This document shows, piece by piece, positions 9,253 to 15,522 of a DNA stretch of 22,053 nt (the first letter of the stretch is position 1; each line of letters begins with the position of its first letter). The translations under genes were made by a program, and so were the position numbers. This DNA comes from a virus (Duplodnaviria; Heunggongvirae; Uroviricota; Caudoviricetes). Under the pieces are notes generated by a model, which made no database searches, had not been told where the DNA came from, and saw only the letters and a list, made by a program, of their open reading frames with translations. The DNA is taken from IMG/VR virus record IMGVR_UViG_3300022924_000017, positions 1 through 22,053 of that record; one strand, given 5' to 3'.

Positions 9253-9555
9253 TATTATGACGTGTAGGCTCGATATTGTAAAGAACCAGTCTGCCTTACC
9301 CGAAACGAAAAAAATCTCGCCAATAACCCTTCTCCTGTGTCTGATTGCTATATAGAGAGTATAAGACCGTATACTAAAGGCTTTATAAAGAATTGCGTGA
9401 AGAAAGCCAAGAGGAAAAAGTATTGTGTTTTATCACGAAAACGCACCTAATCCCAGACCTAGATAGCCAAAGCCAACCAATCACAACGGAAAAGGCGGAA
9501 CGCAAGCCACAATCTCCAACTTTTCTGAACACTCTTGGAGTAGGAATCCGCCCCC

Positions 9556-9652
9556 TTTTTGCCAATCATGGCTTGTTTTTGCCGAATTGAACCCGTTTTT
9601 TGCCAACGACCAGCCCAAATCCGTGAATTGAAGCTCTGGATTGCCAACGACC
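9556..9652 (+). repeat. phased direct repeats (iteron-like)
   Basis: TTGCC at 9559, 9579, 9600 and 9641 (~20.5-nt phase). GAATTGAA-N8-TTGCCAACGACC is duplicated with a 41-nt period (9584 and 9625). Confidence 0.6.
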
Positions 9653-9988
9653 TCCTGGCAGCTACACCATCCGAAGCCAGACTTACGAATCCTGTACTAT
9701 CTGGATTAAAACCAGCAGATTTCAGCATACCCCCCGAATACTGAAGTTTTAGGTATCCAGCTAACCCAGGCCTCCCAGAACCGCGTTATCTCAGAGCTCC
9801 TAGAATCCACAAGAACCTGGCTTCTTCCAGCACGGGTAGGCTGCTGCACTATACAGCCACGAAACAAGGGCGAACAAATGCAAATCACCACAGGCTACTT
9901 GCCAAAGCCTCACTCCAGGTGGCATACTCCCCAGTTCTACGGCTTTACTGCCGATCCGGACGGTATCCAGCGGAATCCTGATGTGCCA

Positions 9989-12359: not shown

Positions 12360-12514
12360 CAGTCTAGCTCCTTTCTTGCATTAGCGAGTAACCCGCAACG
12401 CGAGCATATTACGATTGCTTCTTCATACCCCACCCATTTGTTCTCGTGAACCGTTTCGGGTTCAGTGATCGGAACTAGCTTGTGCATACCGAAGAAACAT
12501 CGAATGCTACGCAT
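12359..12514 (-). CDS. small Zn-binding protein (CxxxxH...CxxC; DUF1660-like)
   Basis: Hand-translated as MRSIRCFFGMHKLVPITEPETVHENKWVGYEEAIVICSRCGLLANARKELD. TAATG coupling. Confidence 0.65.
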   Translation of the reverse strand: MRSIRCFFGMHKLVPITEPETVHENKWVGYEEAIVICSRCGLLANARKELD

Positions 12515-12972
12515 TATCGTTTGACCATCTCGCTTATGAGTGGTTCGTTGAAGTCCTCTCTGGCGCGTCGGAGTTCTTCGTTGCGGGTGACATCTTTGAT
12601 GATTTGATTGATACGCGCTTCGGTGAGGTTGTACTTCGTAGATAGGTCGTAGATACTATATTCACCAGTACACCACTTTTCGTAGATGTTTCGGTTGCGT
12701 CGCCATAGGGTTTGGTCAGTGATTTGCGGGTCGGGTTGGTTCGGGTTCTTAATTTGATACTCGACCTTCTTCACGATCTGTGAGATACGTGAACCGCGTA
12801 GCTTGTTATACTTCTGACCCAGTGACTCGTACGTGTACCCACCTGTAGCGAAGTCTTTGAAGATAGCTACATCACGTTTGATTTGATTACCGATAAGCTC
12901 GTGCTCTACCTTGAACAGCTTTGGCATCAGCTTACGACACTCAGCTGCTCTATTCATTGATTTGCTGTACAT
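12514..12972 (-). CDS. tandem Mor-like HTH regulator (two HTH repeats)
   Basis: KRDVAIFKDFATGGYTYESLGQKYNKLRGSRISQIVK and RRNRNIYEKWCTGEYSIYDLSTKYNLTEARINQIIK both match the Mor C-terminal pattern RN..I......G.....L..KY.L....I.QI. Confidence 0.75.
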   Translation of the reverse strand: MYSKSMNRAAECRKLMPKLFKVEHELIGNQIKRDVAIFKDFATGGYTYESLGQKYNKLRGSRISQIVKKVEYQIKNPNQPDPQITDQTLWRRNRNIYEKWCTGEYSIYDLSTKYNLTEARINQIIKDVTRNEELRRAREDFNEPLISEMVKR

Positions 12973-13201
12973 TTAAACCCCTGCTTTCTAGAGCTTCTAA
13001 TAGTAGCGTCTCGTACGCATTGCTCTTGTTATCGTTAAAGTCGATGTTCGCGAGATTTTCTACCACCTCGGTAAGTGCGATAGGTAACGTCATAGAGACG
13101 GTCTTCTTCTTACCGCTTGGTTTGTGGTATTGAGTTGGAACCTGTCGTGTGACACCGTTCTTCATCGTGACCGCGTTGTATTGTTTCACTGGTTTGCTCA
13201 T
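12950..13201 (-). CDS. ribbon-helix-helix (Arc/CopG-like) DNA-binding protein, probably leaderless
   Basis: KKTVSMTLPIALTEVVENLA...NKSNAYETLLLEAL shows an alternating beta strand, helix and S-x-x-x-x-L helix. Start reassigned to ATG 13201, 6 nt after TATACT. Confidence 0.7.
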   Translation of the reverse strand: MSKPVKQYNAVTMKNGVTRQVPTQYHKPSGKKKTVSMTLPIALTEVVENLANIDFNDNKSNAYETLLLEALESRGLNVQQINE

Positions 13202-13244: not shown

Positions 13245-13261
13245 GTCAACTCTAGGACAAC

Positions 13262-13298
13262 AAAAAACCACCCCTGAACTGGAAAGTAAGAGGGTGGT
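13262..13298 (-). terminator. intrinsic terminator after 13317..13577
   Basis: ACCACCC...GGGTGGT stem with an A6 run on the plus strand (U-tract on the minus strand). Confidence 0.7.
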
Positions 13299-13316
13299 CA
13301 TTCATATTCTATTACG

Positions 13317-13577
13317 TTAGTAGTGCGCTGTCAAGCAAAGTCTACCGTCATAGTGAAACGCGCAGAACGTTCGGATATACTCGTTGTCTGGTATGTCTGG
13401 GTAGATGTGCTTTGAGTCGTCGGGTACCAGTAGGTCTGGCTTCCACCCGTGTTTTTCGAAGTACGCGTCTTCAATACGTTGGTAGTAGACCTTGGTATCG
13501 TCAGGTAGATTTTCTAGGACGCGTCGGAGCTGACCTACGGTCAGATAGAAGTCGTCATCATTTTTTGAATAGCTCAT
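13317..13577 (-). CDS. hypothetical protein, monocistronic, probably leaderless
   Basis: 86 aa; LTVGQLRRVLENLPDDTKV is a common phage small-protein N-terminal pattern. It has its own promoter and terminator. Confidence 0.75.
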   Translation of the reverse strand: MSYSKNDDDFYLTVGQLRRVLENLPDDTKVYYQRIEDAYFEKHGWKPDLLVPDDSKHIYPDIPDNEYIRTFCAFHYDGRLCLTAHY

Positions 13578-13583
13578 AAACTT

Positions 13584-13612
13584 ACTATACAGGTGCCTCG
13601 TCTGGGTCGCAA
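13584..13612 (-). promoter_or_regulatory. sigma70/sigmaA promoter for 13317..13577
   Basis: Minus strand TTGCGA-N17-TATAGT, then 6 nt to the ATG. Confidence 0.7.
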
Positions 13613-13615
13613 ACG

Positions 13616-13644
13616 TTGACTTTGATATACCCCACCCCTATAAT
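13616..13644 (+). promoter_or_regulatory. near-consensus sigma70/sigmaA promoter driving a non-coding unit
   Basis: TTGACT-N17-TATAAT, back-to-back with the 13584-13612 promoter. Confidence 0.8.
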
Positions 13645-13650
13645 AGTGAG

Positions 13651-13778
13651 CTGTGTTAACTGATAAATAACACTTTATACCCCCTATAGGTGTGTATCAA
13701 AGGCATCATGGGCGATACTCACCGACTTATACACCCTCCTTATCGAGAACACCGCGCTACCATGCGGTGTTTTTCTTT
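13651..13778 (+). ncRNA. candidate ~125-nt small RNA with an anti-SD-like CCCUCCUUA motif
   Basis: Bounded by a consensus promoter and a strong terminator. It has a 5' hairpin GTGTTA-N9-TAACAC and CCCTCCTTA at 13734-13742. No complete ORF lies inside. Confidence 0.55.
13748..13778 (+). terminator. intrinsic terminator
   Basis: AACACCGC-N8-GCGGTGTT followed by TTTCTTT. Confidence 0.85.
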
Positions 13779-13851
13779 ACCTCTCTCGAGCCTGTGATAT
13801 TTCACTTCTATGTATAATCAAAATAGAATAAACAATTAGGTAAAACAACGC

Positions 13852-15522
13852 GTGAATAAAAATCTTGATAGTCTTTCAAGAGCCAATGCAACGGCCGTAG
13901 CAAAGACAAAGAACAATTTATCGACAGACTTTCTTCGGAATGGCGGGAGAACTATGTCTCCTTCTTGGTCTGCAACTACGATTACAGATAAGGATATGTA
14001 CAGCGACTTCGGATACGCTGTTATTACTCGACGTGCAAACCGCACAGCAGTTATCGGTAAACGAAACATCTACACTAACGCTTCTAAGAAAGTCCTTGAG
14101 AACGCTAACCATGACAAGACTGCGGTAGTTCACCCTTACCTTCCTCTTATCCGTGAATCAAAGAACTTCTCTGAACGAGTGTTCTGGTACAACATCTCGA
14201 CGTACCTCGACCTCGAAGGAGTCTTCTACCTATACGCAGCTCGACGTGTATACGCTGACGGACACTTAGGTGCAGTACAATCGTTCTCACTTTTGAACCC
14301 GTACAATATCCGTAAAGTAATTAACAGCGAAACTGGTGAACTTGGTGGCTACATTGAATCTCGTAACGGTAAGACCCGCGATATTCACAAGGACATGATT
14401 ATCCCTATCTCGCTCATGGACCCGTTCAATAGTGGCGGACACTTCTCAATGGCAGACGCGGCTCGCGATGCTCAGTTTACAATGAAACAAGCCTCTGACT
14501 ACGCTCGACAGGCTATTCAGGGTAACCTTAACACTCCTGGTATCATCTCTACTTCAATCGAACTAGAAGAAGAAGACTTTGCGAACTTCGTTTCACGTCT
14601 TCAGAACCACAACAAGGGTGAACCAATCTTCGGTAACGGTAGCGGTACTGTTGACTGGGTCGACATGCAACAAGACCTCGACAAGGCTGCACTTGGTGAC
14701 ATTAACAAGATTCACCTCGACAACCTATTCGCTATCGGTGGCGTGTCTAAGACACTCATGGGTATGGAAGAATCTGGTACTGGTCGCGAAGTTTCTCGTA
14801 CACAAAAAGACGACTTCACAGAAAACGCGATTATGCCTCAGATCGAAACTATCATCGACGCATTGAACCTCGACTACCGAACACACTACAAAGACGAGTG
14901 GGAAAAGACCCACTACGAAATGGCTCTAGATAACCCACTTGAATCTGACCAAGACGCTGCTAAGGCTGCAGTCGAAGTACGACAAGCTGAGTTCGATGTA
15001 ATGAAGGCACTAACTGATGCTGGTTATGGTGCAGACGTGGCTTCAAAGTTCGCTCGAGGCGAAATCGAAGTTACCGACCTTGGTAAGCCAGAAGAAACAA
15101 CAGCTGACGACGGCAACGATGGCGACACTACTGGTGGACCAAACCGAGACGACGAAGACGTTGAAGAAAACGGCACTAAAGAAGTCGCTTACAACCTCAA
15201 CGAGCTGGCTGATGATGACCTCGTAGAAATCACAGTAAACAAAGTCCCTATTCGTCAGTTCTTACCTGACCTCGAAATCGAGTTCGCACACGAAGATAAC
15301 CCTACCGCTATGATTAACTCAGCGGTGAAGGACGACACTACACTCATTACCCTTAACGGTATTGAAGCTAAAGACGGTGCAGTATCTGGTACTACCGACA
15401 TCTTTGGTAAGTTTGAGAACGGTTACGTTAAACTGCTCACCGTATTATTCGATGACACAGAAGCCGCACTCAAAGAAGTAACCAAGCGTTACTCAAAACA
15501 GAAAATCGCTGTCAAGAACTAG
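13852..15522 (+). CDS. phage portal protein (HK97 family) with acidic linker and C-terminal extension
   Basis: Size and motifs fit a portal: FWYNISTYLDLEGVFYLY, FSLLNPYNIRKV, NLNTPGIIS, LFAIGGVSKTLMG and IMPQIETIIDALN. A capsid gene lies downstream. GTG start. Confidence 0.85.
   Translation: MNKNLDSLSRANATAVAKTKNNLSTDFLRNGGRTMSPSWSATTITDKDMYSDFGYAVITRRANRTAVIGKRNIYTNASKKVLENANHDKTAVVHPYLPLIRESKNFSERVFWYNISTYLDLEGVFYLYAARRVYADGHLGAVQSFSLLNPYNIRKVINSETGELGGYIESRNGKTRDIHKDMIIPISLMDPFNSGGHFSMADAARDAQFTMKQASDYARQAIQGNLNTPGIISTSIELEEEDFANFVSRLQNHNKGEPIFGNGSGTVDWVDMQQDLDKAALGDINKIHLDNLFAIGGVSKTLMGMEESGTGREVSRTQKDDFTENAIMPQIETIIDALNLDYRTHYKDEWEKTHYEMALDNPLESDQDAAKAAVEVRQAEFDVMKALTDAGYGADVASKFARGEIEVTDLGKPEETTADDGNDGDTTGGPNRDDEDVEENGTKEVAYNLNELADDDLVEITVNKVPIRQFLPDLEIEFAHEDNPTAMINSAVKDDTTLITLNGIEAKDGAVSGTTDIFGKFENGYVKLLTVLFDDTEAALKEVTKRYSKQKIAVKN

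Follow-up and report, generated by a model that had tools for sequence, protein, structure and literature searches.

The window, meaning the whole stretch of 22,053 nucleotides analyzed here, is the first 22 kb of a phage record of 86,053 bp that was judged complete, and its source is probably a large, lytic tailed phage. Searches by blastn and tblastn against 50,697 phage records (cultured phages) returned no relative of the region or of its portal gene. A Bacteroidota host was considered and rejected: the match of the large terminase to Bacteroidota phages is distant (~30% identity), and the sigma-70-type promoters and AAGGAG sites argue against it. Relatives for comparison were found through the portal protein and comprise L002–L005 (IMG/VR, 93–98% identity) and L038–L041 (73–81%).

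The segment of interest (13616–13778) lies inside a 274-nt divergent intergenic region, flanked on the left by a leaderless 86-aa gene on the minus strand (13317–13577) and on the other side by the portal gene on the plus strand (13852–15522), which matches phrog_2662 and PF04860 and is the downstream neighbor of the small RNA described below. The 86-aa gene has its own promoter, TTGCGA-N17-TATAGT (13584–13612, minus strand), which stands back-to-back with that of the small RNA and gives the leaderless layout of -10 box, 6 nt and ATG; its -10 box and spacing are kept in relatives, while the gene itself is an extra, present in the window's group and in L039. A tRNA/tmRNA scan gave no match. The portal gene begins with a putative GTG start, and nucleotide conservation of the first 34 codons from this GTG (13852–13953) extends even to L041, the relative with 73% identity, in which the gene caller picked an internal ATG at the position of Met35, a residue invariant in 13 portal sequences; either codon may be the true start.

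A Mor-family activator (PF08765, E = 8e-11) is encoded two genes to the left of the portal and small RNA region. It overlaps by 23 nt an RHH-like 83-aa gene that is leaderless and carries a promoter of the AAAACCTA-TTGTAT class (together 12514–13201, minus strand), and its ribosome-binding site is G-rich (AGGGGU) and falls within Arg-Gly codons of the overlapping RHH-like gene. This pair adjoins the small RNA across the lineages examined, except that no Mor-like match was found in L041. With that exception, the Mor-like gene is followed by the RHH-like gene, the small RNA, the late promoter and the portal gene in every locus examined. Elsewhere in the window, TTGGCAAAAA-like words are repeated at least four times on the minus strand at 9540–9660, where an 89-aa frame is not protein-like; these repeats may be iterons or operators.

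A promoter-to-terminator unit upstream of the portal gene

An earlier note on this DNA had described the segment as a stand-alone non-coding transcription unit with a consensus-like promoter, a 5' hairpin and a strong U-tailed terminator and with no complete ORF enclosed. Each of these elements is present, and the unit is conserved, with a structure backed by compensatory changes. The promoter, TTGACT-N17-TATAAT, occupies 13616–13644 on the plus strand (TTGACT at 13616–13621, TATAAT at 13639–13644) and is an 11/12 match to consensus; the 86-kb genome contains just five TTGACN-N16-18-TANAWT sites, this one included. In nine related loci the spacer is free to vary but neither hexamer of the promoter (-35 or -10) changes, a pattern that marks it as real. 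Because it is a near-consensus promoter of the host type, the RNA is probably made from the start of infection. Genome-wide, three promoter classes seem to coexist, namely consensus TTGACN-N17-TATAAT, AAAACCTA-TTGTAT and TGTATAAT boxes lacking a -35 element; there are about five consensus sites of the first class, two of which head small RNA units.

If transcription begins 7 nt past the -10 box, as assumed here, and stops in the U-tract, the predicted RNA is ~128 nt long (13651–13778, plus strand) and scores 124 bits (E = 3e-26) with R1, a covariance model built on its three helices. By search with this model the unit is single-copy in the phage's own genome. The intrinsic terminator (13748–13778) has a GC-rich stem of 9–12 bp, with arms at 13748–13756 and 13763–13771, followed by UUUUUCUUU, and folds at -15.9 kcal/mol; a simple terminator scan missed it, yet it folds, is conserved and covaries. 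None of 200 shuffles folds as well as the whole 128-nt RNA (z = -2.9). Two plus-strand frames start inside the unit (13690–13797 and 13692–13817), and both run out through the terminator and are disrupted in relatives by indels of 4–5 nt. No ORF is enclosed in the window's unit and none is conserved across the relatives, so the segment combines its own promoter and its own intrinsic terminator with the lack of a conserved frame, the combination expected of a stand-alone small RNA. It is very probably a genuine structured RNA gene.

Downstream of the terminator and ahead of the portal gene there is a TGTATAAT box (13811–13818, plus strand) with no usable -35 box. The TGTATAAT word occurs 15 times in the genome, several copies having an apparent gene start within about 40 nt. 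The box upstream of the portal gene is present in all relatives and, with the next 40 nt, is better conserved in them than any other part of the region, and phages with portals of ~50% identity show a similar TGnTATAAT box before the portal gene. It is a probable separate, late, activator-dependent portal promoter. Activators of the Mu Mor/C type would suit a promoter that has no -35 box. The unit stands alone because the portal gene has this promoter of its own downstream of the terminator, and insulation of the portal gene by the terminator, as the earlier note had suggested, is plausible.

Ahead of the portal gene, all eight relatives carry a promoter, then 110–190 nt, then an intrinsic terminator. 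With R1, seven of the nine RNAs score at E = 5e-13 or lower, so that the unit could be aligned in six further contigs with portal identities of 80–98%; L041 is marginal (E = 0.058) and L040 gives no match. We count L041 as probably an eighth lineage with the unit. The nine loci examined (the seven aligned with R1, probably L041 and doubtfully L040) represent about six lineages, and in all of them the unit has the RHH/Mor-like regulatory operon on one side and the portal gene on the other. The status of the L040 unit as an RNA gene is doubtful: R1 does not recognize it, and an 81-aa leaderless frame (L040 2752–2997), whose ATG follows the -10 box after 6 nt, spans the whole RNA-like unit and the portal promoter. 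This frame, in a 73%-identity relative, is dissimilar to the small peptides of more distant relatives. In phages whose portals are ~50% identical, the slot holds a consensus promoter driving leaderless, tail-anchored peptides of 42–56 aa that are homologous to one another (L046 1072–1203, L051 1074–1244, L053 1064–1192), so the RNA gene belongs to one subclade. The tail-anchored peptides are followed in these phages by a second small membrane peptide.

A search of the window against Rfam 15 at the gathering score matched no family, including RsaE, 6C, SprX and GcvB; the best sub-threshold match was GcvB (20.4 bits against a threshold of 42). Six related loci likewise gave nothing in Rfam at E <= 0.01. 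Pattern scans of viral, metagenome and genome collections, combined with R1, found among the matches listed only the known relatives and L153, which is identical to L003. The small RNA is a new family, absent from Rfam, of a known kind.

Covarying helices and exposed C-rich words

The RNA contains three helices. Helix 1, the 5' hairpin (13653–13673, plus strand), begins 2 nt after the presumed RNA start and pairs GUGUUA (13653–13658) with UAACAC (13668–13673); 95% of its pair cells are paired, and its G-C to G-U wobble changes fit an RNA of the plus strand only. Helix 2, the central hairpin (13689–13723, plus strand), pairs GGUGUGUAUC with GAUACUCACC around the loop AAAGGCAUCAUGGGC, and six of its nine pairs show compensatory changes, while its loop sequence, the 12-nt GGCAUC(A/U)UGGGC, is kept only in the closest group. 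The third helix is the terminator stem, in which G-C pairs are replaced by A-U pairs in L004 and L038. Over the three helices, standard pairs fill 91% of pair cells, compared to 28–52% when the partners are slid, and double changes occur in 9 of 24 pairs, a number reached by none of 500 shuffles; these figures come from seven sequences in about five lineages, in an alignment fitted to the model. The central hairpin is neither promoter nor terminator and yet carries six double-change pairs out of nine, which points to selection on the RNA fold itself.

Two C-rich words, UAUACCCCCUAU and UAUACACCCUCCUUAU, lie in the linkers between these helices. Motif A, UAUACCCCCUAU (13676–13687, plus strand), is unpaired, with P(unpaired) = 0.92. 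Motif B, UAUACACCCUCCUUAUC (13728–13744, plus strand), includes the word CCCUCCUUA to which the earlier note had drawn attention as an anti-Shine-Dalgarno sequence; CCCTCCTTA is indeed present at 13734–13742. Its CCUCCUU is predicted to be mostly unpaired (P = 0.73 in the window, 1.00 in L005) and falls in a single-stranded linker in the covariation-supported fold. Although CCUCCUUA is thus predicted to be accessible in the window phage, it is conserved neither in sequence nor in position. L003 and L004, whose portals are 93–95% identical, have CCCCCUUAU and CCCCCUAUU at the motif B site and CCCUCC at the upstream site. The sequence of motif B is not kept in L003, L004 or L038, while that of L039 is similar to the window's; CCUCC is lacking altogether in L038, L040 and L041. 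The anti-Shine-Dalgarno word is therefore not the conserved feature of the RNA. A palindrome singled out in the same note fared similarly: CCTATAGG is present at 13682–13689, but L005 has it only in broken form and L003 and L004 lack it, so it is incidental.

What is conserved instead is an unpaired UACCC(C/U)(C/U), which is found in all lineages and usually twice, with one copy between helix 1 and helix 2 and the other just before the terminator. The RNA bodies contain 12 copies of UACCC against 0.86 expected (Poisson P = 1.6e-10, with lineages treated as independent). For 15 of 17 motif copies in nine loci P(unpaired) is 0.74–0.99, compared to a mean of 0.35–0.51 over all positions; the two remaining copies, motif B of the window and that of L002, are at 0.45. 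The C-rich stretches are in this respect predicted to be single-stranded, like those of known sRNAs with C-rich seeds.

A second small unit is present on the other strand. In the window (13258–13334, minus strand), a terminator hairpin (ACCACCCU.../...GGGGUGGU plus U6) comes directly after a consensus promoter, TTGACA-N17-TAGAAT. In L003 (~2345–2470) and L004 (~2350–2475), also on the minus strand, a body of ~100 nt separates the same promoter from the same hairpin and includes GACACCUCCAAC, a sequence similar to the 3' end of 16S rRNA. The window's version appears to have lost about 55 nt of this body, and L038 has a comparable minus-strand unit.

Possible functions of the small RNA

The best explanation for this locus, in which we place about even confidence, is a trans-acting sRNA expressed early in infection and carrying a C-rich seed. 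An independent gene with a near-consensus host-type promoter would produce a structured non-coding RNA of ~125 nt, with a protective hairpin at its 5' end, a hairpin in the center, an intrinsic terminator and, between these helices, two single-stranded UACCC(C/U)(C/U) words. The exposed C-runs would base-pair with G-rich, Shine-Dalgarno-like stretches of host mRNAs, phage mRNAs or both, and the pairing would block the initiation of translation, as it does for RsaE/RoxS, 6C, SprX and LhrC.

Searches for such targets within the phage genome gave negative results. There is no antisense target of at least 12 nt, and 9-mer complementarity is at chance (80 hits versus 67 ± 18). Against 324 candidate start regions, motif A, the loop and motif B formed duplexes no better than those of shuffled seeds, and pairing with the cognate portal leader was not significant (z = -1.4 to +0.8). 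The best start-region match, GGGGGGUAUG at 9728, was rejected because it belongs to a doubtful frame in a repeat-rich, probably non-coding stretch. The complementarity to ribosome-binding sites that characterizes sRNAs with C-rich seeds was thus not found in the phage genome.

The Shine-Dalgarno consensus of the phage is AAGGAG(A), AGGAG being enriched 11-fold before candidate start codons. The earlier note had proposed that the RNA silences AAGGAG-led mRNAs, and the five genes that it named (starting at 2229, 6306, 8124, 10075 and 12359) are real and do carry AAGGAG. Such silencing is possible but found no support, because pairing of AAGGAG(A) sites with the window's motif B would extend over just 6 nt and no phage start region exceeds shuffled seeds. 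Sites of the GGGGUA type were also considered as a target class and set aside: GGGTA is enriched only 1.8-fold before candidate start codons, the enrichment for the class is weak (1.8–3.6 fold), and its orthologues were reached only in genomes 98–99% identical, where they are uninformative. The Mor-like gene is a candidate only. Its G-rich Shine-Dalgarno variants read AGGGGU, AGGGGG or GAGGUA; CCCCCUAU of L039 would pair with this site over 8 bp and the RNAs of the other lineages over about 5 bp, and there is no co-variation between the sRNA and the Mor-like site across lineages.

The lack of a detectable base-pairing target in the phage genome would also fit an RNA that binds or sequesters a protein, the UACCC words flanking the hairpin serving as recognition sites and the RNA as a sponge, scaffold or cofactor. 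The conserved core of the RNA, a short, fixed UACCC usually in two copies with variable flanks where a longer duplex would form, is consistent with this. We nevertheless think it unlikely, as no candidate binding protein is linked to the unit, the only conserved neighbors being the RHH-like and Mor-like DNA-binding regulators, and as C-runs in open RNA are a known signature of base-pairing seeds.

The position of the unit raises another explanation, that it is the leader of the late operon in the manner of pR'-tR' of lambda and Stx phages: transcription from a constitutive promoter would stop just short of the structural genes, a phage factor would permit read-through into the portal gene, and the short RNA would be a by-product, perhaps with a role in trans like that of StxS. 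A strong promoter, ~125 nt, a terminator and a portal gene 74 nt further on fit this arrangement, and so does a Mor-like late activator encoded next door; StxS sets a precedent for it (PMC7547250). Against it stands the conserved TGTATAAT promoter at 13811, one of a 15-member class, whereas with a lambda-type leader the late genes would have no promoter of their own past the terminator; in L039, moreover, an insert of about 330 nt separates the RNA terminator from this promoter. Folds of truncated RNAs show no partner for the 5' arm of the terminator that is shared across lineages, hence neither an antiterminator nor the conserved alternative pairing on which a riboswitch or attenuator leader would depend. 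Mor-family proteins activate initiation and are not antiterminators. Taken together, the portal gene's own promoter, the L039 insert and the lack of an antiterminator argue against the leader, attenuator and lambda pR'-tR' readings, and we judge a late-operon leader decidedly improbable.

An RNA without function, either a promoter-terminator insulator of the late genes or a remnant of small leaderless genes, is about as improbable. An equivalent promoter does drive small leaderless membrane peptides in the relatives with ~50% identical portals, and the 81-aa leaderless frame of L040 runs through the unit, and both speak for this reading. An insulator, however, needs neither the fold nor the words, whereas the central hairpin keeps its pairing through six double changes and the UACCC words are kept unpaired.

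A particular form of trans action, which we regard as a long shot, is that the RNA mimics the 3' end of 16S rRNA and masks G-rich Shine-Dalgarno sequences, mainly of host messages. Motif B reads CACCCUCCUUA, and the 16S rRNA of E. coli ends in CACCUCCUUA. The promoter-proximal phage genes, being leaderless (-10 box, 6 nt, ATG), would then be immune, and the SD-led phage genes use AAGGAG(A) rather than GGAGG; the C-rich unit of the other strand (CACCUCC in L003 and L004) would be part of the same strategy. If true, such mimicry would be a means by which a phage tilts translation towards leaderless messages.

A small protein gene, for example a frame of 29–35 aa starting at 13690 or 13708, is scarcely credible: the closest relatives do share a frame with a conserved ATG inside GGCAUCAUGGGC, but it crosses the terminator, is shifted by the indels in L003 and L004, has no proper SD, is absent from L038 (longest ATG frame 8 aa) and has no homologous frame in L039 or L041.

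Comparison with known small RNAs

To our knowledge, few small RNAs of lytic phages have been described, and almost none from uncultured phages. The present locus is a clean case: its promoter is conserved, covariation supports its fold, UACCC is fixed and exposed, and its location in the regulatory hub of the phage, with an RHH/Mor-like operon on one side and the first late gene on the other, is constant. It contributes a family missing from Rfam and provides a defined object for experiment, and at present it is a solid annotation rather than a new principle.

In the RsaE/RoxS RNAs of Bacillales and in the UCCC-type sRNAs of Firmicutes such as LhrC and RNAIII, unpaired C-rich stretches located on hairpins or between them can cover Shine-Dalgarno sites. 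The RNA described here resembles RsaE/RoxS, LhrC and RNAIII in its length class (~100–130 nt), in having its own promoter and intrinsic terminator and in carrying several unpaired C-rich stretches. It differs from RsaE/RoxS and the UCCC-type sRNAs in being encoded by a phage, in using UACCC rather than UCCC and in matching nothing in Rfam 15.

The 6S RNA of lambda and StxS are short, terminated pR'-tR' transcripts made from a constitutive promoter (PMC7547250). Like them, the present unit is short, terminated and placed directly upstream of phage late genes; unlike them, it is followed by a separate promoter between the terminator and the late gene, and neither a Q-like antiterminator nor an antiterminator fold was found. 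The 6C sRNA of Actinobacteria binds several mRNAs directly through C-rich loops and without a chaperone (PMC6486639). Our RNA shares with 6C the possession of more than one C-run, but the C-runs of 6C lie in the loops of a conserved two-hairpin fold and no Rfam match to 6C was obtained.

SprX (RsaOR), carried by converting phages of S. aureus, uses a C-rich loop to pair with the ribosome-binding site of spoVG and thereby blocks ribosome loading (PMC4005690). SprX resides on temperate phages and has its seed in a hairpin loop, whereas the seeds proposed here lie in linkers, there is no homology between the two RNAs and, in the part of this phage that was examined, there are no lysogeny genes. 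Both RNAs are phage-borne and have an accessible C-rich sequence, for which pairing with ribosome-binding sites is here only proposed. If the targets of the present RNA are ribosome-binding sites, the C-rich-seed mechanism would extend beyond Gram-positive hosts and temperate phages and would reach a phage that is large, is probably lytic and makes heavy use of leaderless genes.
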